A stretch of DNA of 64,000 nt from Anolis carolinensis (taxonomy: Eukaryota), in the NCBI RefSeq assembly GCF_035594765.1, contig NC_085846.1, forward strand, positions 11,643,190-11,707,189, written 5' to 3'. How positions within the stretch are numbered: position 1 is the first letter of the stretch; every line of letters starts with the position of its first letter. The notes under the pieces were generated by a model. The model had not been told where the DNA came from and ran no database searches. It worked only from the letters and a program-made list of their open reading frames with translations. Positions 3,666 through 59,916 of this stretch are shown in pieces. The position numbers and the translations under genes were made by a program.

Positions 3666-4986
3666 CTGTAATCAATTGAAAACATTGAAGAATCATTAGT
3701 CAGAAATGATGCACATTTCCCTCCCCTTCCCTACTCTACCAAATCTTAATTCTCTCTACATAGCTATGGATTCATAAACTTATTAAAGACTTGGATGTAG
3801 GATCTCAGCCATCGAGTTTTAAGATATTGATTGCAACTGCTCACTGTTAGTTTCAACTAAATATATTAAGATATATATAACATGTTCAAAGAACAGACCC
3901 ACTAAAATCTCATTAAAAGCTACAACGTAGATATTTGAGATCTTCAAAACAAAGTAATTAAAATGTCTACACACTCAAGCAATAGAAACTGGTAATTTCC
4001 TTTGACCTTGGGAAGCAAAATACTTTATCTGTATTGTGTGCCTGCCTATCGATCTATTGCTGTTGGCTGTCTTTAAATAATTTCTGACTTATGATTTAAA
4101 AACTCACCTATCACAGGATTTTCTTGGCAAGATTTGCCCTTGTCTTCTCTGAGGCTGAGGTTCAGAGTGTCACCCAATGGGTTTCCATGGTCAAGCTGAG
4201 ATTCAAGTCCTGTTTTACAGGGTCATAATCCAGTGCTCAAACCACAAAGCTCTAGATTTCTATCTCAGAACTGTATTAGAAAGAAAAGAGACCTTCAGAT
4301 GCATGCATAGTGTTAGTGTGTGTGTGTGTGTGTGTGTGTGAGTGAGTGTGTGTGTAGAGAGAGAGAGAGAGACAGAGAGAGTATCTCTCATTCAAAATTC
4401 AAAATACTTCAAAATTATCCACATGGATGGCTAAGATGACACCTTTGCTTTCTGATGGTTGTCAATGTCTACACAAACTTTGTTTGAAACTCAAAATTAA
4501 AATATTGTGTATAATATTACCTTCAGTCTACATGAATAAAATATAAATGAAACATCAATGAATTTCACATTTAGACTAGGGTCCCATCTCCAAGATATTT
4601 CAATGTATATATAAGTATTTCAAAATCTTTTTTAAAACCCTGAAATACAGAGCATTTCTGGTCCCAAGCATTTCAAATAAGGGATGCTCAACTTGTACTA
4701 TATTCCAATCTCTACAGAATTTCATATCAACCATCACCTCCTAGCTCTCAGCTTCCAAAGCTATAATTACTCTGAATACATCATATTTTAAAATTTTGTT
4801 TTTGAAAGAATAGATATATTCATGTCTAGCAAACTAGCAATATCTAAACTGACTTGCAGTAGCAACATCCATGATCTGCTCAAGAAACCATTTTGAAAGA
4901 CAAAAGGCTTGCCTTTTCTTCAAGGTGGACTGATTTTCTTTGAAATGTAAGCCACATCTCACTGTTTGCATTAAAAGAAATCATGC

Positions 4987-7098: not shown

Positions 7099-7649
7099 TT
7101 ACACCAGAGGAGTCAGGAGACACATGGGTTCACCATTGAGTCCATTTTTGTTGACACCTGGGCTGAACATTGGGTAAAGGCATTCAGTGAAAATGTCCAA
7201 GAAGGTGAAGATGTGATCCATGGTGTCAGCATCATAGAAGGAGACCTGTCCCCCTTCGTAATCCAGGTAGACCCCCACTTTCTGGGGCTTGACCTTTGGA
7301 TACAGCTGTTTGGATGGAGAGTCTAAGGCCTTGTACTCATTGCCGTTCCTCAACCAAATGGCCCAAAATCCATTGCTGGGCTTGACCGTTACTTTGGCTT
7401 CCTTCCTGTTGACCGACTCCTTGGCCACACCAATGTCCCAGCTGGTTTTATCTCCCACTTTGACTTCCCAGTAATGCCGCCCTGAAGTGAACCCCTGGGC
7501 ACCCAGAACGCAAACAGACTTGCTGAACCTCTCTGGCCCATCAGGGACTTCCTCCTCAGGGTTGTCCTCCAGGCGTACTGTGTCAAGATCCTTAGAAAGC
7601 ACAAGGTTGGGGTGGTTGGTGGCAGGATCCAAGGTTATAAAGCAAGGAG
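7099..7649 (-). CDS. TRIM exon 6 (PRY-SPRY/B30.2)
   Basis: acag|CT CCT TGC...; in frame with ORF 7099..7632; stop TAA. Confidence 0.93.
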
Positions 7650-10600
7650 CTGTTGAGAAAAGAGCAAAACACGGTCACCAAATAGTTGCCAACTTTTTAA
7701 GCATCCTCTCTAACCCCAACTCAAAGGAAATAAAGAGCATGTGTGTACTAAATTGGCAACCCAAATCCAATACTTTTTTTAAAATATCATTTATCCCCAT
7801 CTCCAAAGGCAAATGGCTCAAATGTCAACTGGTTGTGACTTTGGTCTGAATTTCAGTCTGAACTTCAACTACAAGGTACTGGACCCTAAACTTTAATAAA
7901 GCTCTGTTAAACTTCAAACTTTGGAATACTTAGTCCTGCATGCATACTTTGCGAAGATGTAAATCCCATGCTGAATTCCAGCCATTACTTGTGTCCACTC
8001 CTCTGCTAACAATGCCAGTTACAGCATGGCCCCCATATCCACAGGACCAATTTCGGTAATTTCATTTATCCACTCTGGGAAATTGTGGCTCCTCCTCATA
8101 TCTCTAAATCAAGTCTGCGCAACCTGTAGCCTTCCGGGTATTTTGGACTTCACCTCCCAGAATCCAGCTTGACCATTTAACAAGCCTCTGGGATTCCCAA
8201 ACATCTGGAGGGCCTCATCTAGTTGTTGTCTAGCCTCCCTCCCCTTTCCCCAGTGCAACTTGATACTATTATTGGGCCAGAACTCCCCTCGTTTCAGCAA
8301 GTTTTGCATATCCACACAAAGTCTGGAAATCTATCCCCTGTGGATACGGGAGCTGAACTATAATTTTGACCATTCCTCCAATACTTACAAGGCCTCAGGG
8401 CTGGCAACATTTCTTTCCACACCATGTACTGAATTGGGCCCTTGAACTGGCCCAAGTTGAAACCACGAGAAACTGTGGGCAAGGTAGACCACTTTTCTTC
8501 ACTGAGACAATACCTGTGAAGATAAATAAATCATTGAATCTTCATTATAAGCAGATTTTATAGGGATGATCTCAACTCTGTATGAGACTGATGAAGCTAC
8601 AAGATGGGGACAGCTGGGGACATGTACATTTGATAATGTACATAATAACACTTTTCACCTTGCTGATTGACATGGTTATATATGGTTCAATATTAGAAGA
8701 AAAGGGGGGAATCTGTGTGGATGTTGAGATATAGATTGAGGATGGTTCCTCATGCCTCACCCTAGGCATCATTGGATTCAGAGGTCCAACTTCCATGCCC
8801 CATCTTAGTTCATAGGTTCAGAGAGTTTCAAGTTTTCCAAATCTCCATAAAGCTTATTGAGCTCATGAAATGGCTCTTGAACCAAAAAATGGAAAGTAGT
8901 CTCCACTCTAGATATTTCCCAGAAAGTAGCCCAAGTAAACACAAAATAGGGAAGAGGGGATAAACAAACAGGTTCAAAATTTGAGAATTTTCCAAAGAGT
9001 GTGTCATGACACACTGGTGTGTTGGCTTCAGTGTTTAAATGTGTCATATGAACATAACGAGAAACGACAAACATCTTGGAGATGTACATTATTTTATAAA
9101 TCATATATTTTAAAATATATAAATGAAAAGTTTTCATGGGATATGTTGTGTCCTCATTCATTTCATAATTTCAATTTATGCATGTATCCATATCTTTTAT
9201 AAGGGGTTGGTTTAATCTTCGATTTGCTAGTAAAACTGAATTATTGCATCATGAAATTGTGCGTCTATATAAACGGTGTGTCACCAACATGAAATGTTTG
9301 GAAAGCTCAGCTCTACTTACTTCTCTGTGAAGACCTTGATGTCCTGTGGAAAAAGATAGCAGGAATTAGTCAAGGGGCAGCTGTTGTAAGGACACTGCCA
9401 GCTCAACAAACATTTCTGATTCTCCATATTTTTTATTCCTAACCCATTGTTGTCCTCACCATAAATTATATGGCTAAAGTGAAGAAAGTTTGGAGTAACA
9501 CAGAGAAAATGTAATGGCTTGATGGATAGAGAACTTCAACAAATTTCGATATTCAGCCCCACCTTGTGCCAGCCTGGTGGCCTCCAGATGTTTCACAGTG
9601 CATAGGATTAATGCAGTTTTATATCATTTTAACTTCCATGCTCAATGCTATGGATTCTTGTGAGTTGTAGTTAGATGAGACACTAGCATCTTTTGACATA
9701 GAACTACAACTTCCATGATTCAATAGCACTGAGCCAAGACAGTTAATTCTACAGTATAGATATAGCCTTGGAGTCCAAATTTCAGGATTCCTGAGAACTA
9801 ACTGTGCCAGCTGATGAGACAGTCCAAAACATATGGAGAAACAATTTTGCTGAGATATGCTCTCACCTTCAGGAAAGTTTCAGGGTCTTGGTGTTCCTCA
9901 AGCCGAGTTTGGATCTTAGCCATGTGTTCCTCTGCCATGTGCATTTGCTCTTGCCCATTGCGCTGGTTCCTCTCCAGTTCGCTCACCAGGAGTTCCTCCT
10001 CGTGCCGGAGTGTCCTCTTCATGGCCGCCTCCTTCTCCTGGAGCCACTGGTGAAGCTCAATGAACTGGGCCGAGAGGTGCTGCTCCAAACGGAGCCGCTG
10101 AGCCTAAAAAGGGGAAAATGACAGAGAAGACGACTGTATGAATGCATACTTCTCTAGGCAGCGCTTGGTCTCGCTGAAGCAGACCATAGCATTGTGCATG
10201 AGGACCAAATGGTATATGCAAAAATTATACAAAATGTCCAAGAATGAATTCCCTCACACAATACAGGGGACTATTACATTTTCCATAAAACTAGAAAAAA
10301 AACTTACTGTAATTTCTGGAATTTTCTGGGCACTCTGCTCTTGCAGTAGTCTTGCTGCTTGGGCTCTTGTTTCCAGTGATGCTTGAGCAGCTGTTAAGAT
10401 CTCCTAGACAGAAGAAGAGACATTTTTTAAAAGCCAAAACTAACATATATTTATTTGCAGGGCATCCAGTGTCCACTTGAAGTGCCATGGCTCAATGCTA
10501 TGGAATTCTGGAAATTGGAATTTTACAAGCCCTTCAGCTTTCTCTGCGCAAATGCTGGTACTTCCCCAAATTACAACTTGCAGGATTCCATTGCATTGAG

Positions 10601-13103
10601 CCACGACAGTTAAAATGCTCTCAAATTGTAATAATTCTACAGTGCAGATGCACCCACAGAAATGATACTGAAGTTTAAACATTCATTTATGGTTCATATA
10701 CACTTATACACATAGCTTGAATTTTATAAATTATTTTAAATCATGCATGAAATAACATTTGTGCAGTTGAACCACCAGAAAGCAAGAGGGACTTTATCTC
10801 ATCCACCCTCTACATCCACCCGGTAGGCTGTTAGGAATTGTGGGAGTTGCAATCCAAAACACCTGGAAGGCCAAAGTTTGCCCATGCCTGCTCTACATAT
10901 TTTCAGAGCTTGGAGTATTTCAGATTTTGGAATTCAAGGGAAAGGGTTGCTCTATCTGCATTATTATTATTAGTATTATTGATCTACTTTTCTTCAAATA
11001 AGGGGACCATAGTACCAAGCAACATATTTGAATGCTATACAAAAAAACTTTGAAAAAAGTCGTAATATAAACATTACTTTAAGGCAACTAAACAATTTAT
11101 AAAGTTAAATAGTTAAACAATAAAAAGCATCAATCTTCATTAAAAGACAATGCCAAGCATAACATAGCACATCACATCACTGAAAGCCGTTGCATTTAAG
11201 TTCTTAAAAGATTTGCGCCACGGAAATGTTTGCAATCACCAAATGGAAGTTCAAACTAAAATTTAGACTAAAACCCAGATCAGATTCACTAACATGGGGG
11301 ACATCAGCCAGAACTGGAAAAAAAATGCAAAATCAAGAGTGGCATACAAAAGTTATTTTGGGCTTTCAGAGGAACAGGATCCCCAGTTGCATTGACACAG
11401 AAGATAACGCCTATAGTATACCAAGGGATCTTGCAACATCTTAGAGACTAAAAAAGGGAATTCCAAAGTGACATGTCGCCCTCTGGTGGTGTATTGTAGT
11501 AATACAATCGGTGCTGACCAAAGAGTTTCTCCCATTAGAGTAGTCAGCCACACCAAGGTCCCACTTTGTCCAATATCTGGTTTCCTATAATGACTAAATA
11601 ATACTTTGAGGATGCTAAAACCTGGAAACCATAACAATCTGGCTTTCTGTTTTTGCATGATGACTTTCTGCATTTTCACGACTCATTCTGAGTCTGACTA
11701 TGGTGATATCTCCATCATGGTTGGCCAGGACCAAAACTACAATTTAACAGAATGAGACACCTTCCTATGTCAGCTCCCTGGTGGTTCCTCCAGACTTCCT
11801 AGAAATTATTTTGTGTTGAAGACAGAGCAGTGTATATCACACACTATCTGTCGTGAGTCTTTTTCACTAGTCTACTGTCGCTAATTTCATGGAGGATATT
11901 ATATCCCACTGCTGGCATTCAAGGGCTTCAAGTCAACAACTAATCCAATCATCTTCTGGACTTCGATAGGGGAGAGGACTTCGTCTTATCCTTCCTTTGA
12001 GGAACATCTCAAGTTTACTGGTATCTAGCAACTTCCATGTCAGAGGGTTCAGAGAGCACTCTTGGGCTTTTTATTTTCCAATTTTAGAGGAACTAGTCCA
12101 AGATGTAGACCTTTAGCATCATAGATAAGTCCTTTAAAGTATGGGATAAAGTCATTGTATGACCTAGCACAAGCCTTCCCAACTGCCACTGCTTGGGCTG
12201 AGAATTTAGGTATATTTGTTCTTTGTGAAGCCACCATATACTACTTTTTAAAGCCTCCAAAAACATATGGCCTTCACATTACACAGCAATGAATTCCACA
12301 TACTGAAGTTGCTTTCAACATTCCTTTCACATACACCTGAATCCATTTTCTATCAATTTCATAGGGTGGCTCCACAGTCGAATATTATCTATGATGCCTT
12401 TAGTAGCCCTGAATATGCTTTTCCTCGTGTAAGTTTTTTAATCCCACTTTCAAAAGGCCTCTAAAGCATGTGACCTTCATACTACAGAGCTAGTAATTCC
12501 ATACATTTGTTAAATGTTGCCTTCAGCATTCCTTTCATCTATATCTGAAACAATTTGCCATCAATTTCACGGGGTGACTCCAAATTGTATGGGCAAAACT
12601 AAGCAGGTGGTATACTTGTGCCTTGTGTTGCCCACCTAATCCAGACCTTCACAGTGACTCCTACTGACCTTATAGTGCTCCACAGCCTCATCTAAAGGAA
12701 GACATGGATGTCCCCAATGCTCCAGTTGCAACGACCTCACAAGACAGCCGTCGTCGGTGCAAAAGAGTCTGTCCCCCTGCAACTCCTCATCGTCATTCTG
12801 CTCCGTTTCGGCATCCTCATCACTAGCATGAGCGGAGAGAGACTCCATGGCCTTCCTTGCCAGCTGCCCCAGCACCCGGTTGGCTGTGAATTTTCCCTCT
12901 GGGATCTCACGCCGGCACTCCGGGCAAGTGGGATGTGGCACGTCCGCTCCACCGTTGACGGGTATCTCTGCCCAGTAGCGGGTAATGCAAGCTTGGCAGT
13001 AATTGTGCCCACATTCCAGCATGACAGGATCCAGAAAGAGCTCCAGGCAGATCGAACAACGCAGGTCTTCTGCAAAATCCTCCACTCCGGTTGGGACCGC
13101 CAT
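7099..13103 (-). CDS. TRIM E3 ligase (RING, degenerate B-box, coiled coil, PRY-SPRY), TRIM69/A33/XNF7-like; join(13103-12669,10403-10308,10103-9867,9343-9321,8513-8389,7649-7099), 488 aa
   Basis: All introns GT-AG. Exon sizes 435/96/237/23/125/551 fit the canonical class IV TRIM layout and keep the frame open. C3HC4 [23 protein letters not shown]; [16 protein letters not shown] motif as recalled for TRIM69-type proteins; LDPAT-HP-L, YWEV and [17 protein letters not shown] motifs. Confidence 0.92.
8389..8513 (-). CDS. TRIM exon 5 (125 bp linker)
   Basis: acag|G...CCT T|gtaag; [41 protein letters not shown]. Confidence 0.88.
9321..9343 (-). CDS. TRIM exon 4 (23-bp micro-exon)
   Basis: acag|GACATCAAGGTCTTCACAGAGAA|gtaag; the canonical 23-nt TRIM exon. 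Confidence 0.85.
9867..10103 (-). CDS. TRIM exon 3 (237 bp, coiled coil)
   Basis: ttag|GCT...AAG|gtgag; [21 protein letters not shown]...ETFLK. Confidence 0.9.
10308..10403 (-). CDS. TRIM exon 2 (96 bp, coiled coil)
   Basis: ctag|GAG...ACA|gtaag; [32 protein letters not shown]. Confidence 0.88.
11475..11490 (-). promoter_or_regulatory. CTCF motif
   Basis: Minus strand CCACCAGAGGGCGAC matches CCASYAGRKGGCR; a weaker same-orientation site lies at 11771-11784. Confidence 0.6.
12669..13103 (-). CDS. TRIM coding exon 1 (RING + B-box relic)
   Basis: ATG at 13103 (gtcATGg); ends HYK|gtcagt, phase 0. Confidence 0.92.
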
Positions 13104-14097
13104 GACAGTGCACAGTGCCACCGGGCAGATTGCAAATAACTTCAAAACTTCTCACCAACCCTGGCGGTATTCCTCTCCTCCCCTTCCTAATTTGCAGTTG
13201 TTTCCTCTGTGTATCCAAAACACTTCTTCACAATCTGGTTTTCCCAAATATTATCCTCACTTTTTATTTTGTCCACGTTCCTCTCTCCAGAAAAAAAGGA
13301 CAAATGTTCTCTTGAAGTATTTTAACTCCAGATGCCCTCCTCCTTTCTCTTCTTTCAAATTTCTTATATCCTTTTCCAAGTTACCTCGTGAAATACATAC
13401 ACCCCTTGGATTAAATACTCTTCTGCTATAGGACTCTTCACTTGCCCATTGTTTCCTGCTCGGCTAGGTTTCTTCACAGTATTTTCTATGCATTTCTCAA
13501 TCCAATATTCTCTTCTCCGTCTTCTTCAAAACGGGCCCTGCCCAGACGCTACAAGTCTCAACACAGCTTCTGATGAATTCTTCAAATAACAGCTGCTTTT
13601 AAAAGGGTATGCAACAGCAGTGCATGACCCATCTTTGCCTCTTATTCAATGCCTCTCCGAAATCTTTCTCATTACCTTTTGAAGCCCCACCTTTCCACTC
13701 TTTGGTCTACTCCAGATGACTCACTCAGGAAAGCAGGACCTGACGCATCCAGCTGCCCAAGCATTTCTAAACCAGATGTGGGCAATTCTGGGGTATCCAG
13801 AAGCCACAAAAAGGTTAGGCAGAGCACCTATAATTTTTCCCACATTGAATTAGAGTAAGCATGGGCAAACTTTGGCCCTCCAGTTGTTTTCCATTGTGGG
13901 AGTTGATGTCCAAAACACCTGGAGAGCTGAAGTTTGCCCATGTCTGGGTTAGAATATCTTAAAAGTTGTGTGATCCACATTTAATCCGTATTGCTTCCCC
14001 CCCACAATGCAATTCAAGATCAAACACAAGGGCAGCCATATCATTGAATGGAGGAGCTTTATAAGATGTAGAAAGGAGGAGGTGGCAAAAAAGAAAT

Positions 14098-14469: not shown

Positions 14470-14552
14470 GATTATGGCACAGTGGGTTAAAGCACTGAGC
14501 TGCTGAAATTGCTGATCAAAAGGTTGGCAGTTCAAATTCTCAGAGCAGGTTG
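14470..14552 (+). mobile_element. Sauria SINE 5' part, split by the ERV
   Basis: tRNA-derived head ggcacagtgggttaaagcactgagctgctgaa...ggcagttcaaat; continues at 19225. Confidence 0.8.
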
Positions 14553-14956
14553 TAAGGCAGGAATGAAGGGGTAGGAGGAAATGGCCATATAAGGAGGTAC
14601 GAGCAGGCCAGGAACACAGCCGATGGGTTATCACATGGTTTCCCTGAAATCATGTGTTTTGAGAGAAACGAAAGTAATGAAGAAATGTAATACTGCACCA
14701 CAAATATGCACCAATGGTTTGATATGTGGGCGGTCGTAAACTGAACCCACTGCCTTGTATAAATAGACACTCGACCCTGTCTGCGGGGTTCTCCCTTTTC
14801 AGCATCTAGTTGTGCGTGGGATGAACCTCTGCAGCTGCAGGAACTATAGTAAACTGCTTTCTTTGGAAAAACCTCCAGTTGTCTGTCTCCTACTTCCACT
14901 GCGTCCGCACAGACACACGAGAAGCCGGGAAGAGGGGAAATCTGGCTTCCGCTACA
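14553..14956 (+). repeat. 5' LTR
   Basis: TAAGGCAG...GCTACA; CCAAT (about 14711), GC box GGGCGG, TATAAATA (14758), AGTAAA polyA variant (14848). Confidence 0.95.
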
Positions 14957-14961
14957 TTTTC

Positions 14962-14979
14962 TGGTGACCCCGACGTGAT
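14962..14979 (+). other. Primer binding site, tRNA-Trp
   Basis: TGGTGACCCCGACGTGAT, the 18-mer known as the tRNA-Trp PBS of avian leukosis/sarcoma viruses, 5 nt after the LTR end. Confidence 0.9.
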
Positions 14980-15403
14980 TCCACAATAAGACGGGCCAGG
15001 AGATCGGAGACGGATCCCGTTGGCGGGACGGTCCCAACTCAGCGGTGGGGGCCAGAGGCAACTACCGTGAGACGAGAAGGGGCCCCTGAATATTGTAAGA
15101 CCGGCTGCGGTACTTGCCTCTGATGCCAACGCCGGCCGACGGTGGGAGCCGCAACGACAGCGAGGTTCCAAAGAAACCAGCTAGGAGGAAAAGGATCCAG
15201 GGAAAAAGCCCAGGGGCGAAGGTTGGTCCGACGTCTACAGCAATCTGGCAAGTATAGTGGTTAAATGAGACACTAAGGGAACAGCGCCGGGAGGGACACA
15301 AAGGTTCCCAGGGAGATATAAAGGGGTTCTGTCTTGTGATTCCTGACACACACCGTTGAGTGTCCAGGTGCCCAGTCCAAGGCAGTCCCCTCTATTAGGC
15401 AGG

Positions 15404-15550
15404 ATGGGAGGCAGTGGGTTCAAATCCACCACCCCATTACAGTGTATGTTAGACAATTTCGGCTCAGTTGCAAGTAGAGCCGTAGAAGGAATTCCCCAGA
15501 GAACAAGACTTGTGAGGGTGCCCCAAGACCAAGTCGTGCAGGGCTCATGA
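15404..15550 (+). pseudogene. gag: gag N-terminal (matrix) stub, 48 aa
   Basis: MGGSGFKSTTPLQCMLDNF resembles ERV1 matrix starts (MG myristoylation, TPL-CML-NF) at the expected distance from the PBS; stops early. Confidence 0.65.
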
Positions 15551-16127
15551 GGAGTCGCAACTCCCGGGGGGAAAAAAAAAACTGTTTGATTTCTTTGTTA
15601 TGTGTGGGGAATAATGAGTTTCAAGTTCTGCATGTTTCGTGGTAATATTGAAGTGAAAATGAAAAATGAGTCTATAGATTTACACAAAAAATGTTGAGCA
15701 CAAATATCTAGAAATGTTTTATTACGGTTGAAAAAATCTGATTCGAAGAGGGTCTGTGTTAGTTTGCTTTTGCTGACAAGCTGCAGAGAGGCGAGAAAAA
15801 GGGAGGGTGGTGTTGAGGCTGTTAAAGTGGTGTTGAAGCTCAGAAAGTTTTCCTTGTTATTTCTGAGAAACAAAAGCTGTTTTCTTAAAAAGTTTTCTTT
15901 TGCACCTGGGCCTCATGCCAAAAAAGATAGTGGGAAAATCTTGGCAGACAGTCCAAGGTAAAAACGCCCTGTCATTCTGGTTAAACTCAGGCGAAATGCC
16001 CAGAGAAAGATAAATGGAATTCCAGTGGACAGCCAAGGTCAATGAAAGCCACTGTGAACTAGTGAAGTTTTAAAAAATGTAATGTGAATCTAATATGAAA
16101 AAAAAAAGAAAGAAAATGATGATGTAA

Positions 16128-16165
<38 letters not shown>

Positions 16166-18622
16166 TTATTGGGGTTCTGTCTTTCACCTGGAACTTAAAT
16201 CCTTGCTTTGAACTTGTTTTGGGACAACTAGGTGAGAATGTTTCATGAGCTGAGAGAGAGTGTGTGATTTTATCTAAACAACTAACCACTAATCAGAATT
16301 CCTGTGGACCTTGTGTGAATGAGATGTATGTGTTGAATTCAAAATGCATAAAGAGTTATAAACAATGTTAGTAGATTTGTTCAGAAGCAATTCGGAAGCT
16401 GTAGATATTTTTTTTTTTGGAAAAAAAAATGGTCTTAGGCTTGAAAAAAAAAATCCTTGTTTTGAAAGAACAATGCTTCAGTGTTTTTAGAGAACATGGT
16501 GATACAACAGATAAGAGCTGGACATCTGCCCAGAAATTGAATCTCAAGGGAAAAAAAAATGAGCCTGAACAAGTGTACTTTTGAAAACTCAAGCCTCTGT
16601 GGGCTACTCCCCCTTTTTCCTGTTCTACAGACTTTAAACCCCTTACAGGTTATAGGGAAATGTTGGAGGTTCTTTTTTTTGCAGCACTTTGGAATACAGG
16701 TGATCTTGGTGAGTCAAGAAGAAGGAGAAGGAATGTGAATGAATGTTTTGGAAAGGAGAGGACAAGGAGAGGAGTTATTGGTTGTGGAGACTTTGTATGG
16801 AAAACTGTCACAAGTTGGCAGTGCAAAAAAATAAATAAATATATATTTATTTTTGGAAAAAAAAATTGATCCCATATTCCTGACACAGAAGGATTAAGAA
16901 CTGACATTGATTTTTAAATTTTTGATTGACATTTTATTCAAAAAGGGAGCTAGTGCCCAAGTGATAAAAAGTTATCCTTTTGAGAACCAAAGACATGATA
17001 TAATTGGCTGCATCTCATGTTGCTTCATAATAATTTTGTGAGATTTGGATTCTGAACTTTGTGATTTTGGCCCAACTCTTTCTAAAGGTTACGGAAAGGA
17101 AGGACTAGGACTTTTGTAAACGGGACATTAGATCATGCAAATAGGGGCATTTTTTCCATCGCCCCCAGCCTGGATTTTGCCAGATTTGAGAAGCGGCAGG
17201 AGGCTTTTCAACGTGTGTTACTAACAAATTTTGAGCTGTTCAACGAGTCGGTGTAAAAGGGGAATTGAGTAAGTTTAACACTGCAGCAGGACTGGAGTGG
17301 AAGATTGCATTGCAGCAAGTGGATACACGATTGTTAAATCGTTTGCGGAAAGGAAAAGAAAAAGATGCGGAGAAGAAAGATTTTGTTGGATTTCAAGACA
17401 GATGAGTGTGTTGTCAAAGGCACAACCTCTGAGGAGGCCTGCCTTGGATGTGAGCGAAACGACTAGAGAGAGTGCTTCAAGAGCCATACAGCCTGGAAGG
17501 ATGAGTATTTCCCTCCCCTTCTTTTCCCTCTCATTGTTTTTTGCTACAGGTCCTGAACTCCTGTATGGGATAAACCCAGAAGTCTATGAGACATGTTTAT
17601 TGAGAGGCCTGGGAGGGCCTATAGGTGTTGCTGAGTGCTAAGGCTGTGATGGAGTGTGGCATCAGGCTGGAGGCTGTAAGGGCTGACCAACTCAACAACA
17701 TACAATTTTCTATTTTGACCCAACTCTCCTGGATAGGACCTTTTGTAATGGGACATTGCAAATAATTCGGATTTTTGACGGATTTGAGAGACAATGAGGG
17801 ACTTTTTCATATGCCATCTAACAACCTTGCTTTTTAAGCCAAAAGGAGGATATAGCACGGAGACAATGTGACAAAGAATAAAATAAGTTAACCATTGCAG
17901 CAGGACCAGAGTAAAAAGGATTACTGCAGATCGCGAAAGAAGGCCCATGGAGGAATCATTTCTCAAGAGGCCATGGAGGGGTCGTTTGGGAGCTGAATAG
18001 TGGCCTACCTGCCCCACCCGTGGAGAGACAAGGGATTTCAACAAGATTGGCTGAGACAAAAGTGATGCCGAACAGGATGATCGACAGATGGGTAATCCGT
18101 TCCCCCTCCCCCATTCTCTCTCACTGTCTTCCTGCTTTCTTTTTCAGCTTTTTGGACTCCTGTTCCAAAATTGGAGATCCATAAGGCATTGTTACTGAGA
18201 GGCCTGTTTTCCAAAATGGAGATCCATAAGGCATTATTACTGGAAGGCCTGTTTTGGAATCCAAAACCCGTAGGAGTTTAAGTCTACCCCACGCCACACA
18301 TACTGGGTATGACAGCTAAAGCCCTGTGAGAGATGGAGATTTTCTTTACAGACTTTTCTTTACACAGAGACAATTCTTAGAGACTAGAGACTTGATTGGA
18401 CAAAGAGACTTTCTTCAAATTAACTGAACATTATTCCTTTGATCAAGGAAGAGGAAACACACCCCCAGTTTGACTTTATGCCAAAGACTGAAAAGACCTG
18501 AAAGTTGGACATGCATGTGAATGGCCACCTCTGGCCATAGCAACAAATCCATCATCGGAAGAAGCCAAATGACTGGGCTAGATCAGAATTCTACTGTGGA
18601 CTATGTCCTTTCTAAAACCTGA

Positions 18623-18751
18623 TTAATATTTTTAATCCTCATGTGTTGTTTACCTCTGGTGATGAAACTATGTACAAATGCTATTCTGCGCTCATTTTCC
18701 ACTGAAAAGATAGCTTGGCTGCAAGCTAGAAGGGATTGGAGGAACCCATAA
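18623..18751 (+). pseudogene. env: env TM anchor / cytoplasmic tail relic
   Basis: Frame reads LIFLILMCCLPLVMKLCTNAILRSFSTEKIAWLQARRDWRNP* and ends about 45 nt before the PPT; preceded by an in-frame stop. Confidence 0.55.
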
Positions 18752-18795
18752 GTCTGCTCATTTAGTTTGCTTCAGCTTTTGTATACACGCTTCGC

Positions 18796-18816
18796 AAAAA
18801 AAAAAAAATGGGGGAA
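18796..18816 (+). other. Polypurine tract
   Basis: A13-T-G5-AA immediately before the 3' LTR. Confidence 0.85.
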
Positions 18817-19220
18817 TAAGGCAGGAATGAAGGGGTAGGAGGAAATGGCCATATAAGGAGGTACGAGCAGGCCAGGAACACAGCCGATGGGTTATCACAT
18901 GGTTTCCCTGAAATCATGTGTTTTGAGAGAAACGAAAGTAATGAAGAAATGTAATACTGCACCACAAATATGCACCAATGGTTTGATATGTGGGCGGTCG
19001 TAAACTGAACCCACTGCCTTGTATAAATAGACACTCGACCCTGTCTGCGGGGTTCTCCCTTTTCAGCATCTAGTTGTGCGTGGGATGAACCTCTGCAGCT
19101 GCAGGAACTATAGTAAACTGCTTTCTTTGGAAAAACCTCCAGTTGTCTGTCTCCTACTTCCACTGCGTCCGCACAGACACACGAGAAGCCGGGAAGAGGG
19201 GAAATCTGGCTTCCGCTACA
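18817..19220 (+). repeat. 3' LTR
   Basis: Identical by eye to 14553-14956. Confidence 0.95.
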
Positions 19221-19224
19221 GTTG

Positions 19225-19400
19225 AGCTGTCGCTGTTAGCCCCAGCTTCTGTCAACATAGCAGTTTGAAAACATGCATATGTGAATAGATCAATAAGTAT
19301 TGCTTCTACTAGGAGGTGTCTACGGACAACGCTGGCCTTTCGGTTTAGAAATGGAGATGAGTACCATTTAATGTCAGGGGGAAACTTTTACTTTTACCTT
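19225..19400 (+). mobile_element. Sauria SINE 3' part
   Basis: agctgtcgctgttagccccagcttctg...gtagatcaata-like core and a ttttacct tail. Confidence 0.8.
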
Positions 19401-19414
19401 AAATATCCTAAAAA

Positions 19415-19585
19415 TGTCAGATTCCATCTGACCTTAGCAGAGTCACACTAGCTGATACTTGGATGGAAGACCACCCAATGAAAACCAGGTGCTGTGGGCT
19501 ATATTTCAGAAGAAGGAACTGGCAAACCCATCTGTATTTCTTGCCTCTGAAAAGTTATAAGGTCTCCATAAATCAAAAGGCACTT
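19415..19585 (+). mobile_element. 5S rRNA-derived SINE (degraded)
   Basis: tacttggatggaagaccacc...ccaggtgctgtgggc resembles the 5S 3' half; its tail is shared with the 26.6 kb copy. Confidence 0.65.
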
Positions 19586-20479
19586 CTTAGAAATGTAGGG
19601 AGCATATAGTAAAACTTTCGCTCACATTTTAAAAGAACTCTTCAAAATTCAAAGCATCATGAATTCTAAAATTAAATATGGATGAAATGTATCTTTCATA
19701 TATTTCAAAATGCATGAACTATCAGTGGCCTTCCAAATGAACTCACATCAAGCCCAATGCAATGTGGTATGGGGGATGTTGGGAGTTGGAATCCAACATC
19801 ACCTGGAGGGTAGCAAATAGCAAGGAATATGTGGAGTCACAGTCCAATCCTTTCCATTCTATTCTTCCCTTCCCCAAAACATCAAACAAGGAAAAGCTTC
19901 CATAAAGAGGGACAGCCTGGAAACATTTTGCAGAAGAATATTCTCAAAAGCACTTTAGCAGGACTAGAAGGAAAGGCGTGCTTACTTTCAGACAAGGAAG
20001 AAAGGTGTTTTTGATTTTAATACGTATTTTTCTAAGCCATTAGTCATGGCACTCATTTTAGAAAGGGAAGTCCCCTGTCAATAAATTACATGCCACATGC
20101 TCCACTGCTCTCTCTCTCATGAATAAGCTTGTTGCCCATCCTCTCTGGTTTTGCAATTTTGCAAGGGTTTCATTCCTCCCTCTTGACCCCTCTAGGCATA
20201 AACCTGGTTTCTTTAAGAGGTGATTCAGTGTCGCAGGAAGTGGAGAAGAGGTTTGATGGTCCAGTGCTAAGGAATGATGCAAGTTGTTATTTCACAAGAT
20301 CTTTAGCCATCTCTGCACAAGATTTCAGGTGCCTCATGATTCCATAGAATTAGGCCATGGCAGTTAGCGTAGTGTCAAACTGCATTAATTCTACAGTGTA
20401 GATACATCCCAGGATACTTGCAGCCACACAACATCCAAGCACAGTCAAAATGGCAAAAGTTATTAAATGAAGAGGAACA

Positions 20480-20830
20480 GGTGATCATGCCTTCTAACCC
20501 TTCTGCTCCTGTCTTCTGGAGTATTAGCTATCCCTCCCAATTTGGTCCCATCTGCAAACTTGATGATCATGCCTTCTAATCCTTCATCTAAGTCATTTAA
20601 TAAAGATGTTGAACAGACTGGACCCAAAACAAAACCGTCTTATGGCTTCTTTCCAGGATGAAGAAGACACATTGGTGAGCACCCTCTGGGTTTGTTCACT
20701 TAGTCAATTACAGATCTACCTAACCATAGTTTTGCCTAGCCAACATTTGACGGTCATGGGGGACCTTGTCGAAACCCTTATTGAAATACACTCCATTCAC
20801 GGCATTCCCTGCATCTACCCAGCTTGTAAT
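20480..20830 (-). mobile_element. CR1 LINE RT fragment
   Basis: Minus strand reads ...IIKFADGTKLGG (degenerate FADDTKLGG). Confidence 0.7.
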
Positions 20831-22304
20831 TCTAATTTATATATATACGGTATATATATATTTGCATTTTAGATTTATGTTTAGTTAGAGATGTAGGTTA
20901 GTGAGAAAAATTGTGTAGTTATGTACGTAAATGTTAAGAGATGTTGTTCAAGTGTGTTTGTGCATATGTAGGCATTGTAGTTTCCTTTATTTGTGCTCCC
21001 CCCCCCCTTTTAAAATTCCAAATAAAACAGAAGAAAGAAAAATGCTGGCTGTTGACTACAGAGATTTTCTGGAAGAACTAGAAATCCCTAAAGATCCCAT
21101 ACTAATCAGTTTTAAAATGCATGTTATTTATTATGTTTTAATTGTATTTTTAACCAGGCACAGTACTATTTAATTGCCTTTAATTTTTGCATTCACTTTG
21201 TTTTAAATTGATCAAAGTGTGTGATTGTTAGCCACCTTGGTTTGTGGGGATATAAATAAACTAAATCATTTTCATCATCAAATCTGTGAGCAGTCAAATG
21301 CAGAAAAGTGAAATGCAGAGGAACAACTTTGCAAACAAGACCCTCGGTGGCTTCAAATATCCTAGAATTAAGACCCCAAGAATTTTTGACTCCCTACCCC
21401 GCTTTCTGGAAGGAGAAAATTGAATGTCATACATTGGAATGACGTCAGATTATTCATCCATCTCTGATTTATCTTTCAGTTTAGTAAAAAGTGAGAAATA
21501 CCATCCTACTAGGCTGCATATCCATTGCATCGGTTGGGCAATTCTGGCACACCCGAACTGTAGTTGAGCAACCGTCTATGACAAACAGAGACTTTATGAT
21601 GATGAGATGCAGCCATCTATGAAGTGGAGCATTCTAAAAGCAGATCAACTCAAAGATTATCAAATGGGTTTGCATGTCTAGTGCCCAAGCATTCATCCAT
21701 TGAGGTATAATGAGTCAGTAACAAATGGCAGGAAATTCTTTCGTGGGATGCTGTTTTTAATATTGCTTTTGGGATGAATCCACTCTTCCTTATTTAAGCT
21801 CCTCTTGCAAGGGTTTGGGAGAACAAATGCAGGAAGGAAAGGCACAAAGTCCAGGAAACAGGTATCTCTGTTCCACATAAAATCAGATTTCAGCTATAAG
21901 TGGATGGGAGTAATGAAAAATTGCAATCCCATTTTTGAGGACTGAAAATCATACAGGTACTCCATATGTCTCAGAGTATCAAGTAAAATAATTCAGAGGG
22001 TCTTATACAAGTAAATCATCAGAATTCTGGGAATGAAACTTGAAAAACATATATTTTTGTAAAGATGGGTTTACAAAGAAATATCGATTTTTACACTTGT
22101 TGTTAATGTTAGTATTTTCTAGCAAGGACTAGGAGTCCAAGGTGGTACAAAGAAACCTATTTCAGATCCAGGGAAAAAAGTAGCAGAAGCAAAGACATCA
22201 AGTGATGGCAATTACTCTCTTTACTCAAGCCTTTTTTGGCTAAATTACCTCACCAAAATTAGGGTGCACATTAGATTAGCATAAAATAGTAATCTTAGTG
22301 CTGA

Positions 22305-22592
22305 GGCCCTGATGTCGCAGTGTGTTAAACCCTTGTGCTGGCAGGACTGATGACTTGAAGGTTGGATTGTTGACCTGAAGTTTGGCAAGTCGAACCCAAC
22401 CCAGGGAGAGCACGGATGAGCTCCCTGTATCAGCTCCAATTCCATGTGGAGACATAAGAGAAGCCTCCCACAAGGATGGTAAAAAATCAAAACATCTGGG
22501 CGTCCCCTGGGAAATGTCCTTGCAGATGGCCAATTCTCTCACACCAAAACCAACAGGAGTGAGTTTCTCAACTCACTCCTGACACACAAAAA
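22305..22592 (+). mobile_element. Sauria SINE
   Basis: tRNA-like head and Sauria core; homologous to 48792-49170. Confidence 0.75.
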
Positions 22593-22729
22593 ATAGCGTT
22601 GAGCCAAAGCAAATGGGGAAGCTGCTTCGGGAACACCTGGAGCTTCTAAGGGATGTTGTCGCTAATTTAATTGTCATGGCTCAATGCTGTGCAATCCCGG
22701 GATTTGTAGTTTTGTGAGACATCTGCACT

Positions 22730-23340
22730 CTGTGAACCCACTTGTCCTCTTCGTTCATCCGGTAGGGCACTTCTTTCGCTCCCGCCACCATCCCAGGCTC
22801 GGTTGGCGGGGACGAGGGAGCGGGCCTTTTCTATTGTTGCTCCCCGGATCTGGAATTCCCTTCCGGAGGAGATCCGGAAAGCACCCAGCCTGGCTTCCTT
22901 CAAAAAGCTGCTTAAAACCTGGCTCTTCCGCTGCGCCTTTGGATAACCGAGCCCATAGCTATAGTAGTTGCACAGGCCATCTCTTTGACTTGAAACACTG
23001 CACTATATTCCTCTGCCCCAAAGCATCTTAGAATATAACATTGTGTTTTAGTTCTAGTGGTCCCTCCAGGCCATCCTCTCCTCCATCCCACTGGTCTTTT
23101 TTCTTTTTTCTTTGCAGATTCATATGTTATTTGAGTGAGCATACTCCTTCTGTTTATGTGATTGTTTTAGTCAATTGTTATGTTTTGTTTTTGTTTTTAA
23201 TTCTTATAGCGTTTTATAGTGTTTTCAGTGTTTTATTGTACAATGTTTTATGCTGATTTTATATTGGAAACCGCCCTGAGTCCACTTCGGGAGAGAGGAC
23301 GGTATACAAATAAACTTTTACTTACTTGCTTACTTACTTT
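22730..23340 (+). mobile_element. L2-clade LINE 3' end
   Basis: ORF2 C-terminus PLRSSGRALL...RAFSIVAPRIWNSLPEEIRKAPSLASFKKLLKTWLF*; 3' stem-loop ccgccctgagtcc..ggacgg; (ttac)n tail. Confidence 0.85.
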
Positions 23341-24542
23341 GGCAGAGAAACTCAAGGCCTTGTAAAACTACAGCCCCCAGGATTCAATAGCATTGAGCCA
23401 ATGCGATGACCCCAAGGTATTATTTTCCATTGCTGGAAGCATTGGTGTTCTAACACTTTTATTTTTAAAGGAGAAATTCTAAGCAGGCATCAACTGTATA
23501 ACAAAGAGTGCATTTTTTGCCACTGCACATTACATTTGCCAGCAAAAACTTGGTTTCAGGGTTTTGAAAATGTAGGTGTGCATTAGATTCAATGGCACAT
23601 TAGGCTCAAGTAAATACAGTATGTGGACCTCCAGATGCTGTTGGACTACAACTCCCAGCATACCTTCACTCTGCAAGTATTGGTTAGACTTCCTGAAAGA
23701 TTTGGTTCAGCAACATTTGGATGGCAATATGCTGGCCACCATTGTCTAAAGGAGGTTTATATCTACTAATTCCAATTTGGTGGCTGACAGGATGTGTTGG
23801 ACTGCCATTTTTATCATCCACAGCCCACATGATGTAGACTGGGGATGATGCGAGTGACAGCCCAACACATCCCACAGGCCACCAAATTGGGAAAGGCTGC
23901 ATTATACTAACAAGACATAGCCTTCCATTCCTAGAGAGATGGGTTTTCTCCTGTTTCTCTACCTTCTCCTTCAAACACCAGATCCAGCCAAGGATGTCAA
24001 GAGAAGCTCCCTTCCACCTCACCTTTGCCCAGACATATCAGTGTCACTCCATTGGCGTGCTGTAGACAAAACAAGTTTTTCCTGTCTACTTATCAGTCTC
24101 TCTTTCTCTTCAGCCTAACACACCCATCTCCAAGTATTTGAACAATAATTCAAATCAATGTGCCCCATAGAAGTTGAAGGCAAGTTTGCTTGCGGCTTTG
24201 GAGTGGCATTCGGATGTGTTGTGTCATGTTGATGCTCATTCTCCCTCCGAGGTGATCAAGTTGCAAAGTATAAGTCATTTCCGACTGGGATCATTTCAGT
24301 ACAACATTCAGAATTGCACAATATTGGAGTCCAGGCTTCTTTTGATTATGGGTGTTCCAACAAATCTTTGCAAACAGGTAAAGATAATGGAAAGTCATCA
24401 TTTTGGTACTGGAATTGTCTTAAACAAGAGGTTGCAGCAGAGCATACTAGGAGGCCTGGAGCAAAGAGATGGATCTGTTTCAGCACCTTTTTTTTTTTTT
24501 TTGCAAAACAGGGAACATTGAAGATCTATCTAACTATCCATA

Positions 24543-24544
<2 letters not shown>

Positions 24545-24619
<75 letters not shown>

Positions 24620-24632
24620 ATGTGTGTGTGTG
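24545..24632. repeat. Compound (CT)n(AT)n(GT)n microsatellite
   Basis: Directly visible. Confidence 0.95.
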
Positions 24633-24731
24633 CATTACAGCTCTGCTATCCTCGCAACCATATTCTGTTCATATAATCCCAACTTCAGCATCTGATCCTC
24701 TGTCATATAGGCATAGAGTTACCAAGTGAAA

Positions 24732-24935
24732 TAAGGTTGGTACATAAATTAAGGGACAGGTTGTGTATAAGAAGGAATTTCTGCATACATCACAAGCCAG
24801 ACCTACAGAAGTTTGCTCTTTGTGTACAAGAGTAAACATCTTTTAAGTCTGTCCTGTGATGCAAGCAGAAATTCCTCTTTTACACAACTATTAAACAACT
24901 AGGAGCCCTGTCCCTTAATTTATGCACCAGCCTTA
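24732..24935. mobile_element. Palindromic MITE (Harbinger-like)
   Basis: Arms taaggttggtacataaattaagggacagg / cctgtcccttaatttatgcaccagcctta, with further internal complementarity. Confidence 0.65.
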
Positions 24936-26358
24936 CTTAAGCCTCACATTGAAAAACCAACACCATTTTTTCCCTGTATGTATGGGCATCGCCTAAGAGA
25001 TGTGCAAACTTCAGTGTAAACAACTTTGTTACTCACATTATGCAAGCTATTTAAATAAATCAAATTTATTGCATCAAATCCTGGAGCCAAATCAGGCTAT
25101 ACCGGGCTTTCCCCATATACCAGCATTGAATGGTTTCCAGGAACTTGTGTGGATTTCCACTCATTACCATTTTAAAGGTTGAGGCGCAACTTCTAAAGCA
25201 GTGGTTTTCAGACTTTCTGATGTACAATATCCGCAGCTTCAAGAAGCATACCACAGTATTGCACTGGAGTGCCTAGAAAATATCTAGAAAGAACATTTTT
25301 TTGGATGAAGGTACGAAAAATCACAGGTATCAGCCCCCAGAATACAAGTACCGACATGATCTTGAAAATGTATACATTTAATATCATGCAATGAAAGGTG
25401 GATCACAATGCCTGGAGGCTTCCAAGATAGCATTCACCCAAGTTTTACTCAGAAAAAGGCAAACACCTTGGTGAATGTGTCTGGGATGTGGAAAAAAGCT
25501 TTGGGGGATATATCAGGTCCCAGCAGTGAACTTTGTCCCTCCTTTGTCCCTTCTTGGCCAGGTAACAATATCCTGGGCAAGACTTTAGCTCTGGATCAAA
25601 TCACCATGTAGTTTTGGCCAGAGGCAAAAGGCTTCAATGCATCCCTGTTGAGAATATTTACCATATCAAATATTCAACCAGAGCTCTGCAGTCGCCCAAA
25701 TGTTTTTCTAGGGAGATTGCCAACCAGCAGACTCCATGCCTCACCTAAGTTCATGATGTGTCAAACATGTCCCAAAACACCTCAACCAACTAAGTCCCAC
25801 CCTAAGTAATATGACACATGATACAAGGACTACATGGTTTTTAAATATATAAATCATGGTTTTAATAGAAATGGCAAGACCAAAAAAAAAAAAACCATTC
25901 TAAGACATCACAAACACTTTTGAGAAAAATACACCACCACATTCCAGCCTAAGGACAGCAGCACTCAAAGGCTTCCAACCAGTTGTACAGAGACATTTGA
26001 GAACACAGCCAAAAATCCATTTCAAATTTGACCTCTGGATCTCAGAAATAAAGTGGTCTGTGGAGACTAGTGAAGTTTAGAGCCACATAAACAGCTTTTT
26101 TGGGAGCTGTGTCAGAACTGCATTTTGCTCACTCCTGCCCAACAGTAAATAGTTTTATTAGGGTACTTCTAGGAACACAAAGGGAAAGATACCTCACCTC
26201 TACTATGCAAATATACACAGATCCTCTTAGATACAGATGTTCTTTCCTACAACTCCAGAAAAAATGAGAAAAGATTCTGAAATCATCTTCTCTGTTGGAA
26301 AGTAGAAGATTAAGAGTAAGATCCTTTGGACCTTGAAGTATATCATCACAGCCTTTAG

Positions 26359-26493
26359 CAGTGGTTCTCAACCTGTGGGTCCCCAGATGTTTTGGTCTTC
26401 GACTCCCAGAAATCCTAGTAGTTGGTAAACTGGCTGGGATTTCTGGGACTTGTAGGCCAAAACATCTGGGGACCCACAGGTTGAGAACCACTG
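26359..26493. mobile_element. Palindromic hAT MITE (CAGTGGTTCTCAAC family)
   Basis: TIRs plus 8-bp TSD gcctttag/gcctatag. Confidence 0.9.
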
Positions 26494-26595
26494 GCCTATA
26501 GGAACAAAAGCAGGCAACAAAACAGGCCCTAAGAAAGGTGCTATTGGATGCTGGGAGAAACCTCATATTTTGAGCAATGCTAAATAAATACTCTG

Positions 26596-26790
26596 AAGGT
26601 ACCAGATTCTATCTGATATCAGAAGCTAAGCAGAGTCAGCCCAGGTTAGTATTTGGATTGGGGACCACCAACCAGTATTAAGCAATGTAGGACGTATTTC
26701 AGAGAAAAGAACTGGCATAACCACTTATGAGTATTCCTTGCCAAAGAAAAACTTATGGAACACATTGCGGTTTTATTACATTGCAGATGT
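26596..26790 (+). mobile_element. 5S rRNA-derived SINE
   Basis: tctgatatcagaagctaagcagagtcagcccaggttagtatttggattggggaccacc is a diverged 5S A/IE/C box region, followed by a non-5S tail. Confidence 0.75.
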
Positions 26791-26859
26791 TATTTCCAGA
26801 AATAAATACAGTAACATCTAGAAAGCTTTGGCCCTTCAGATGTTGACTATGTATCTTCA

Positions 26860-27030
26860 AGTTGCCTGTCAAGTTATAGGGACCCCATGAATTCAATAGA
26901 GTTTTCTTAGATAAGGGATACTCAGATGTGGTTTTGCCACTTCCTCTGAAACATGGCCTACGCTACCCTGTATTTGCTGGCAATCTCCCATTCAAGTGTG
27001 AACCAGGACTGACCCTGCTTAGGTTTAATC
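26860..27030 (-). mobile_element. 5S rRNA-derived SINE, inverted copy
   Basis: Reverse complement taagcagggtcagtcctggttcacacttgaatgggagattgcc...gtagcgtaggc. Confidence 0.7.
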
Positions 27031-29652
27031 TGACAGGTGCCTTTGTGGCTTTTAGACAGAGCTGTTGACTACAACTACCATATTCCTTTCTTATTGGTCA
27101 TAATGGTCAACGTTTCTGGGAGTTTTTGTCCAATAATTTCAATGGAAATATATTTCTTCATTTCAAGATAATAATGTTGCACCACAAACTTCCTAAGATT
27201 GCTGTCATGTATGAAGGGGACTTTGGGGTGGCACAGTGACAGCACAATGTACAGCTTGCAGAGAATGACCCATGGGCACACTAAAGTGAGTTCTGCAAGT
27301 CGTAAGTGGAGAAACACAGAATGCCCCTTTTATAGAAAGGAGATCCATAATATCCTTAGAATACATGGGCATTTCCTTTCAACCGCAGACCCGGCAGAAA
27401 ATGGCACCAGTTGTCAGGTCATACCTGCAAGAAAATAAGCTTTCAAGGCACCGAGTGAGAGGTCAGTGTGGATGCCGGGAAGCAAAGGATTCTCTCCCAC
27501 AAAGAACAGGGGAAAGATGTTGAATGGGCTGAATTTCTGCATGAATTCAAGCCCGGAACAAATGTTTTGATATAGGTATAAAAGCTGGATAGTAAAAAAA
27601 AAAAGTGTGAAAAAGAGAATCAACATTTGAAATGTGATCCTGGAAAAGGGTTCTACGGATGCATGCAGTGCCACAAATCAAGCATGAAGCCAAAAATGAC
27701 TAAATGAAAGCTACTGTAGTTTGACCACATCATTAGACAACATTTACAAAGATAATGTCTGATAAAGTGGGAGGCAGTAGGAAAAGAGGAAGACTGTATT
27801 ACAAGTAGATAGGCTCTATCAAATTAGCCACAGCCCTGAGGATCTGGGCAAAGTTGTGTCTTGGCGACCTTTCACTGTGTGAGGGTTTGTAAAAGAGGCA
27901 CCACGATGTGATGAGTTGACTGGAAAGGGCATGTGGGAACAGCTGATTGGCTGAGCCAGTCAGGAGCCAGAATTCCAATTGGCTGCTGTCTCTAGCTTGG
28001 TGCTGAGACAAACGGTTTTAACTGCCACTTTCATCTCGGAGAGGGAGGAGAGCAGCTGACTGGAAAATGGTCAGGAAGGAAATGGCTGCCATACTCTCCG
28101 AAGCCTGATTACTTATAAGGCAAATAAGGCATATTTAAAGGAACTGTTTATTCCCTATGTTCTCTGTGTGAATTCAGAAAGGTTACTATATATATTGTTG
28201 CCCTGTTTGAACTTTTGAACTGAAGTAAAGATACTGTTACTTGTTACACAAGCCTGAGTGGCATTTTATTATACTGCAGGGTTTATCTTGATTCAGAAAC
28301 TGTGGTAAAGCATCTATTTATTTACTTCTACAACCTCAACACATTGAACGAGTCACCATTAAGTCAAAGCTGACTAGCTGCAAATGGCAACAACTGTCCA
28401 CAGAAATGAGGCTATGCATAGGAACAAGCTACTGCCACAATACAAAACGGGAGTCTGGTAGGGTTGCCATATTACATCCAAGATGGAACTTTTGCTTCTT
28501 CGGACAGAATGCCCACCACCTTTCCTACAAAACAATTAAAGTCATTGTAACACTGACTGGGGCTGTGTATCGAGGATACTTCTTTTGGATGACAATATGA
28601 CAACTCTGGATTTAAGTGAGTCCTGAAAAGGTAAAGCTCATTTCCATGTGGACTTCACATGTACACATACATACGTGTGAGAGTAGAAACTTTACTCAGT
28701 CCCCAAAGTACCAACACCAGCCATTCCCAGGTTCTCCTGAACACTGGGTTTGGGAAATCACAGTAGTTGCCATATAAGGGACTGACATTATAGCATAAGC
28801 AGAGCACATATTACAGAGCAGGACTAGGCAACTGTACCCGCTCTAGTGTCTTTGAATGCTACTCCCATCATCCCTGGTTATACTGACGAGCTGATAAGAG
28901 TTGCACCTAATGCCCCATCCCTCCCTCATCCAGCCATCTTTAGAATGCCCTAAGGTTAATTCTTGGCATTTCCAGTTAAAGTAGTTCAAGAAGAGACTGG
29001 TTACTTGCTGCAACCAGTCCAAACACAGAGAATCAATCTAAATTGATAACTAATAGAATACACCAACTGGCAGGGCTTTTTATCTCTCTTCTGTTACAAT
29101 CCAACTATTTCACAAGGCTAAGGACAAAGTAAGCTATAGCTGTATTTACTGTTTCTGGAGAAGTTTTTCTCCAGATATTTGCCCCTTCAAACACCTCTCG
29201 ATACCCTATGCATAAAAACCAATATTGGCTAGGAGGTAAGGAAGACACAGTGAGGGGTCAGGAAGGAATTTACTTGACACCTGTTTCAGAGGCAACAAGC
29301 AATGCACAAACACACACACGCCCTTAGTATTGTCCCTGCAGTCTTGGGACAGCTTTCATTCCTGCTTGCCAAAACACACCCAACACAAGGTGACATAGGT
29401 AGAACACACCATCACCTTACACCTTTCTGGGAAAGTCCTTCAGTCCAAACACCAGCCCAGTTCAGCCTTTGCTTCAACACAAAGACACAGGCACTGCGGT
29501 TCCCAGCCGGAGTAATTGAGAAGGCAAATGGATCAGTTTTGAACTCTCCAAGTTCAGCCTTTGTTGGGCTTTTGTTGTTGTTGTTTTTTTCCTTCCCACC
29601 TCCAAGCAATGGTTTTGGAATAGAAGAAAATGGCAGACAGGATTCCAGCTTT

Positions 29653-36145
<6,493 letters not shown>

Positions 36146-59846: not shown

Positions 59847-59916
59847 CTGAAACAAGAAAAGGTGTCACTATTGTTCCTTCGGTTGAAAAAAGGTTGGAAT
59901 AGCAGTCTACCTACAG

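Follow-up and report, generated by a model that had tools for sequence, protein, structure and literature searches.

The genome of the green anole, Anolis carolinensis, carries a retroelement with two identical long terminal repeats (LTRs), no detectable genes and an interior far more diverged than its ends. It lies at positions 14553-19220 of the 64,000-nucleotide stretch that was analyzed here (the window: NCBI RefSeq assembly GCF_035594765.1, contig NC_085846.1, 11,643,190 to 11,707,189, forward strand), and we consider it likely to be a young, non-autonomous class I (gamma/epsilon-like) endogenous retrovirus (ERV), presumably one of a multi-copy family, whose RNA would be copied and inserted by the proteins of a coding-competent relative. 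An initial annotation, made from the sequence alone, had described it as a coding-dead, parasitic ERV with intact cis signals, similar to VL30 and ETn. Its parts are collected in table 1.

Anatomy and Insertion Site

Exact alignment of the two LTRs (14553-14956 and 18817-19220) gave identity at 404 of 404 positions, in a window without any N, and agrees with the lack of differences first noted by eye. The primer-binding site (PBS) had been called perfect, and positions 14962-14979 indeed match the 3' 18 nucleotides of tRNA-Trp as printed in 10.1101/400127; they also equal the primer used for chicken ALV/EAV proviruses (PMC5029493). The predicted polypurine tract is likewise present. Both LTRs end in CA, and the 3' LTR opens with TAAGG directly after the purine tract.

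The tetranucleotide GTTG stands on both sides of the element, a match with a chance of about 0.004. When LTR starts from 14549 to 14555 were tried, a 4-bp flanking repeat appeared only with a TA start, a TG start at 14551 gave a 2-bp repeat, and no start gave a repeat of 5 or 6 bp. The first bases of the 5' LTR are ambiguous, since the target-site duplication (TSD) itself ends in TG. The 4-bp TSD of the initial annotation therefore holds with a TA start, and its "intact" cis signals are intact as regards the PBS, the purine tract and the CA ends but probably not as regards the LTR start, which reads as TA rather than the conserved TG. Most simply, the TA end would have been present in the parental RNA already and would have been copied from there to both LTRs; alternatively, a later 2-bp difference or a consensus error may have arisen at the edge of the 3' LTR. 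The insertion interrupts a short interspersed element (SINE), which we take to be of the Sauria type. With the element removed, the site aligns gap-free over the junction with both of the other window copies of this SINE, and hence the insertion cost the target no bases.

Just downstream of the TATA box, each LTR can form a long hairpin (14773-14840 and 19037-19104; z -2.15 and -2.62), possibly an R-region structure, although with 76 windows folded it does not rise above chance after multiple testing. Only three of these windows reached z <=-2, about the number expected by chance, and two of the three are this one hairpin. A search of Rfam gave nothing at the gathering level and three chance matches (E >1).

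An Interior without Detectable Genes

No Pfam family was found in any of the six read-through frames of the interior (stops read as X). Among its 54 plus-strand open reading frames (ORFs) of at least 25 amino acids none matched a retroviral family, and five had weak, unrelated matches (E 0.009-0.1). The longest, of 120 amino acids, falls inside the range of shuffled sequence (median 92, 95th percentile 129). The absence of gag, pol and env ORFs, as given in the initial annotation, was upheld. A short distance ahead of the purine tract, where an env transmembrane tail would be expected, a 42-amino-acid ORF (18623-18751) includes a hydrophobic segment with cysteine; we do not claim it as an env remnant, its only PDB matches being two chance ones (E 1.5 and 5.5).

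The leader downstream of the 5' LTR (14957-15403) has 57% GC and an observed/expected (o/e) CpG ratio of 0.72, which 1 of 131 equally sized host tiles attains; its CpGs are undecayed, as the initial annotation had it. Judging by its position, it is presumably the packaging region. A 48-codon Met-Gly ORF begins 447 nucleotides past the LTR, where a gag start would be expected. It could be the stub of a gag matrix start, a suggestion that we offer as a lead; we believe that it resembles a class I Gag start, a likeness that the database searches left unconfirmed. Its 48 amino acids gave ten candidates among 5.8 billion proteins, none at E 10, no match among 1.84 billion representatives or in the PDB, and nothing usable in the ESM Atlas. 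Neither the window nor these stub searches yielded a coding-competent helper.

The interior was described as AT-rich, but its 42% GC is that of its surroundings (41% and 43% in the rest of the window), and only the block at 15571-17050 deserves the name. As to the homopolymers of the initial annotation, the interior has ten A/T runs of at least 7 nucleotides, and nine of the ten fall inside this same block.

The 3' half contains a duplication of about 500 bp, whose units A and B share 70% identity across an alignment of 460 columns; the alignment scores 84, and the best of 200 shuffles scored 43. The AT-rich block may hold an older third unit, starting at about 16175, a borderline case, since it has no match to unit A and its score against unit B was equaled or exceeded in 3 of 200 shuffles. 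Close to the end of each unit is an acceptor-like site of the polypyrimidine-YAG type (16630, 17549 and 18147), but the window as a whole has 0.45 such sites per kb, and three on the plus strand of a 3.86-kb interior do not clearly exceed that rate.

Table 1. Parts of the LTR element and of its insertion site, in window coordinates.
Feature	Position	Strand	Basis
Host SINE, 5' part (received the insertion)	14475..14548	+	blastn, 83-88%, copies 61635-61586 and 62735-62689
Left TSD, GTTG	14549..14552	+	
Whole element: 5' LTR, 3.86-kb interior, 3' LTR	14553..19220	+	
5' LTR, 404 bp, TA start, CA end	14553..14956	+	404/404 identity
CCAAT 14711, TATAAA 14758, AGTAAA poly(A)-like signal 14848	5' LTR	+	Motif positions; presumed roles
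PBS, 5 nt past 5' LTR end	14962..14979	+	18/18 complementary to tRNA-Trp 3' end
GC- and CpG-rich leader, donor-like site near 15249	14980..15403	+	Composition; no significant fold
48-codon Met-Gly ORF, strong Kozak context	15404..15550	+	ORF 15404-15547, stop 15548-15550
AT-rich, CpG-poor block, TA microsatellite, acceptor-like site 16630	15571..17050	+	34% GC, CpG o/e 0.17
Repeat unit A, polypyrimidine-TAG acceptor-like site 17549	17055..17611	+	Score against shuffles
Relic of anole Penelope-like hammerhead ribozyme and ORF start, sense, 79 bp	17421..17499	+	blastn, nhmmer
Repeat unit B, polypyrimidine-CAG acceptor-like site 18147, no Penelope-like match	17704..18206	+	
45-bp tandem duplication, 2 copies	18163..18255	+	91% matches; younger than the A/B pair
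Polypurine tract A13-T-G5-A2, abuts 3' LTR	18796..18816	+	20/21 purines
3' LTR, TA start, same as 5' LTR	18817..19220	+	404/404 identity
Right TSD, GTTG	19221..19224	+	
Host SINE, 3' part	19225..19317	+	blastn, 80-84%, copies 61558-61483 and 62650-62577

A Young Insertion of an Old Sequence

The lack of any difference in 404 bp bounds the LTR divergence at <0.74% (95% bound), which at rates of 1e-8 to 1e-9 per site per year, assumed rather than measured, places the insertion at less than about 0.4-3.7 million years. That it is young is supported outside the LTRs as well, by the perfect PBS and the CpG content of the leader. The clocks inside the element run far longer. The two units of the internal duplication differ by 30%, and a relic of a Penelope-like element differs from host copies by 22-24%, about thirty-fold above the LTR bound, though part of the relic's divergence may stem from an older Penelope-like subfamily. 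These comparisons show that the non-coding interior is far older than the LTRs, and they support the view that the loss of the genes preceded the insertion; reverse transcriptase and integrase would consequently have been supplied in trans. On both counts, coding decay before insertion and mobilization by proteins from elsewhere, the analysis comes to the same conclusion as the initial annotation, whose further proposals of a family, a still-active helper and a polymorphic insertion are hypothetical.

The Penelope-like Hammerhead Relic

The relic (17421-17499) matches two Penelope-like copies of the host, one at 78% identity and the other at 76% (blastn E 3e-13 and 4e-11, respectively), with scores that none of 500 shuffles reached, and it is confined to repeat unit A. 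It retains the hammerhead core motifs CTGAGGA and GAAA, and it differs from the host copies in the start codon, the cleavage triplet, one pair of helix II and helix I. Its fold is unremarkable (z 0.57), the host copies also scoring weakly (-1.04 and -0.18), and no hammerhead was found in the LTRs. By the established rules for hammerheads, the ribozyme would probably be inactive, as might suit an RNA that needs to stay whole.

The fragment's source is the Anolis Poseidon Penelope-like element PAc, in which the hammerhead core lies over the ORF start and the cut falls 26 nucleotides past the start codon (PMC11167929). Unlike PAc, the anole LTR element contains only this degraded fragment, with no reverse transcriptase or GIY-YIG sequence. 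The same 26-nucleotide spacing occurs in another copy in the window, at 40249, whose translation is 93% identical to residues 1-29 of the anole Penelope-like ORF.

Penelope-like sequence is present elsewhere in the window. About five tandem terminal repeat units of 180-209 bp (38825-40479) surround a truncated ORF end (39851-40118) and an ORF start with hammerhead (40235-40335), and other pieces lie at 37949-38085 and 63294-63719. A second ERV was considered at 38-40 kb and ruled out, the sequence there being Penelope-like. One fragment (39863-40057) is 97% identical to an A. carolinensis protein and 84% identical to A. sagrei proteins (7 matches among 9 candidates). The A. carolinensis proteins named AKAP7 isoform X3, PNMT and MRE11 show matches of 68-95% to the end of the Penelope-like ORF, and these entries are probably gene models that swallowed a repeat.

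Minimal hammerheads are reported to be active only as dimers (PMC4209133), and since retroviral genomes are packaged as dimers, a hammerhead kept in such an RNA could aid dimerization or act as a switch gated on packaging. It would be surprising, and we give it very little credence, if the element belonged to an amplifying, parasitic squamate ERV family whose members share the TA U3 end and have retained the ribozyme for such a use; were this true, two unrelated classes of retroelement would be joined in a single mobile RNA.

Weighing the Explanations

According to the explanation that we prefer, a non-coding RNA would be made from the 5' LTR and packaged through its leader by the Gag of a coding-competent relative. 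The helper's reverse transcriptase would prime on host tRNA-Trp and the purine tract and copy a single U3-R-U5 to both ends, and its integrase would then have inserted the product into the SINE with a 4-bp stagger. The lineage would have lost gag, pol and env long ago and evolved thereafter as a passenger RNA, which gained duplications, homopolymer runs and the Penelope-like fragment, with a ribozyme that has probably ceased to work. A 4-bp TSD is general for ERV1, with noted exceptions, and a 6-bp TSD for ERV2 (PMC4299795); the element has the former length and lacks the latter.

Several observations weigh against this explanation. Its 4-bp TSD requires a target that ended in TG by chance (1 in 16), and the U3 end is without the conserved TG. 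Concerted integration is reported to fall when the terminal CA is lost (PMC2857682), and for this reason the present copy, without the conserved U3 dinucleotide, may be a poor parent. For Rous sarcoma virus, two papers reportedly describe CA at the U3 end as dispensable. The CpG-poverty of the AT-rich block equals that of host DNA. Neither a sibling nor a solo LTR was found in the other 59 kb of the window, which is a weak test, and a translated search for siblings with a 174-amino-acid antisense ORF, also a weak test, returned 40 candidates, none at E 0.1. The assignment to class I draws on the TSD length and on the presumed Gag resemblance, and the Trp primer is also that of the avian leukosis viruses.

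An unlikely alternative, in our judgment, is a one-off recombinant provirus, in which the LTR, leader, gag start and purine tract of an active ERV were joined to old cellular or defective-ERV RNA in one round of reverse transcription, so that the element, though made in trans, would be a dead end and not a family. Its mosaic CpG content (o/e 0.56-0.72 in the LTR and leader versus 0.17-0.20 in the AT-rich and 3' blocks) suits such an origin, as do its host-like features (a TA microsatellite, the Penelope-like relic and three sites resembling splice acceptors), the non-canonical U3 end and the negative sibling searches, by window and by translation. The interior, however, is unlike all or nearly all of 14 host tiles: its GC skew of +0.16 compares with -0.064 to +0.043 in the 14 tiles, its ten A/T runs with 0-7 per tile and its 79 bp of window-shared repeats with 80-1470. 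These properties speak for a lengthy existence as a retroelement rather than a single capture, and the nested duplications of differing age also suggest a long history of its own. Still less probable is a passenger of the same lifestyle whose lineage and helper were a Ty3/Gypsy retrotransposon or a class II (alpha-like) retrovirus, not a class I ERV. Vertebrate Gypsy elements can also produce 4-bp duplications, no pol remains by which to classify the element, and its Trp primer site is the one used in avian ALV/EAV; but the TSDs of ERV2 are generally of 6 bp, and the long GC-rich leader, the acceptor-like sites and the Met-Gly start, with its unconfirmed likeness to Gag, would fit a retrovirus.

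We find it highly improbable that an old provirus decayed in place and that gene conversion or assembly collapse made its LTRs look identical. The absence of differences in 404 bp would by itself be compatible with conversion, and the interior is deeply diverged internally. Such decay should nevertheless leave a longer interior with a detectable pol, and none was found; a repeat of 404 bp fits within an ordinary long or Sanger read; and the marks of youth extend beyond the LTRs to the 18/18 PBS, the CpG-rich leader and the intact TSD.

Comparison with Known Elements

Having LTRs, PBS, polypurine tract and TSD (with the TA start) and no intact gag, pol or env, the element is most likely a non-autonomous ERV. 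The comparison with VL30 and ETn made in the initial annotation is a fair analogy for its lifestyle and fails as a statement of membership, given the Trp primer, the lizard host and a TSD that is not of 6 bp. Mouse VL30 (PMC4859993, PMC6466679) shares with it the LTRs, PBS, purine tract, 4-bp TSD and lack of intact ORFs. VL30 is class I, with a 4-bp TSD in 76 of 86 full-length copies, identical LTRs in 42 of 86 and no intact ORF (PMC4859993). But VL30 uses Gly, Pro, Gln, Met or Thr primers in rodents and retains a recognizable, stop-riddled gag/pol, whereas none is detectable here; having neither a rodent host nor a VL30 primer, the anole element stands outside VL30 proper. Mouse ETn, with its helper MusD (PMC6466679), similarly lacks coding capacity, has only traces of retroviral homology and is mobilized in trans. 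MusD/ETn is, however, class II betaretroviral and its helper was demonstrated by experiment, whereas in the anole a helper is deduced and the TSD is of 4 bp. Without a 6-bp TSD, the element lies outside both ETn/MusD and the alpharetrovirus-like ERVs.

The non-autonomous ERVK elements of the deer mouse (PMC10089650) are also full-length LTR elements without a domain-coding ORF and young by LTR identity; their subfamilies are class II and defined by at least five gap-free copies, whereas the anole element is described from one locus. Abundant non-autonomous ERVs are well documented in rodents, and such elements may outnumber every other kind of ERV in a genome (PMC10089650). The LTR retrozymes of plants (PMC4918200, PMC12029980) are likewise non-autonomous and have a hammerhead motif, but theirs are working ribozymes in the LTRs. 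The anole element, with a lone internal relic whose cleavage triplet is changed and which does not fold stably, is outside this group, which has intact hammerheads in its terminal repeats. In the open literature we found no description of a non-autonomous anole ERV; Repbase, Dfam and subscription papers lie beyond that scope and may already hold this element.

Genomic Neighborhood

The element is situated between a RING-PRY/SPRY TRIM gene (minus strand, start codon 13103) and a kinase gene, presumably MAPK7, whose 3' end is near 29.6 kb; it runs in the direction opposite to these two genes. The stretch 19221-29600 gave no Pfam family. It lies upstream of TRIM, 1.45 kb from the start codon and on the opposite strand, and could therefore affect this immune-type gene. 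A strong minus-strand acceptor-like site at 14308, 245 bp left of the element, is the only one between 13100 and 14553; if TRIM uses it, the element lies within a 5' intron of TRIM, in antisense, and not upstream.

Besides TRIM (7099-13151) and the MAPK7-like kinase (~29.6-36 kb), the minus strand has C2H2 zinc-finger ORFs (43745-45901 and 53451-56672) and an ORF at 2694-3671 that we take to be olfactory-receptor-like. Short palindromic repeats resembling miniature inverted-repeat transposable elements, which match one another in both orientations, occur at 10817-10898, 26353-26517, 30119-30198, 31813-31960 and 48991-49143, and further ones at 49739-49875, 50794-50933, 58858-58990, 59911-60062 and 61831-61939.

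Implications

The element does not overturn current understanding. If siblings and an empty allele exist, the green anole would have harbored an ERV lineage that recently supplied replication proteins, and the element would be a squamate counterpart to VL30 and ETn, usable as a polymorphic marker. Its layered interior is a record of how passenger elements age.

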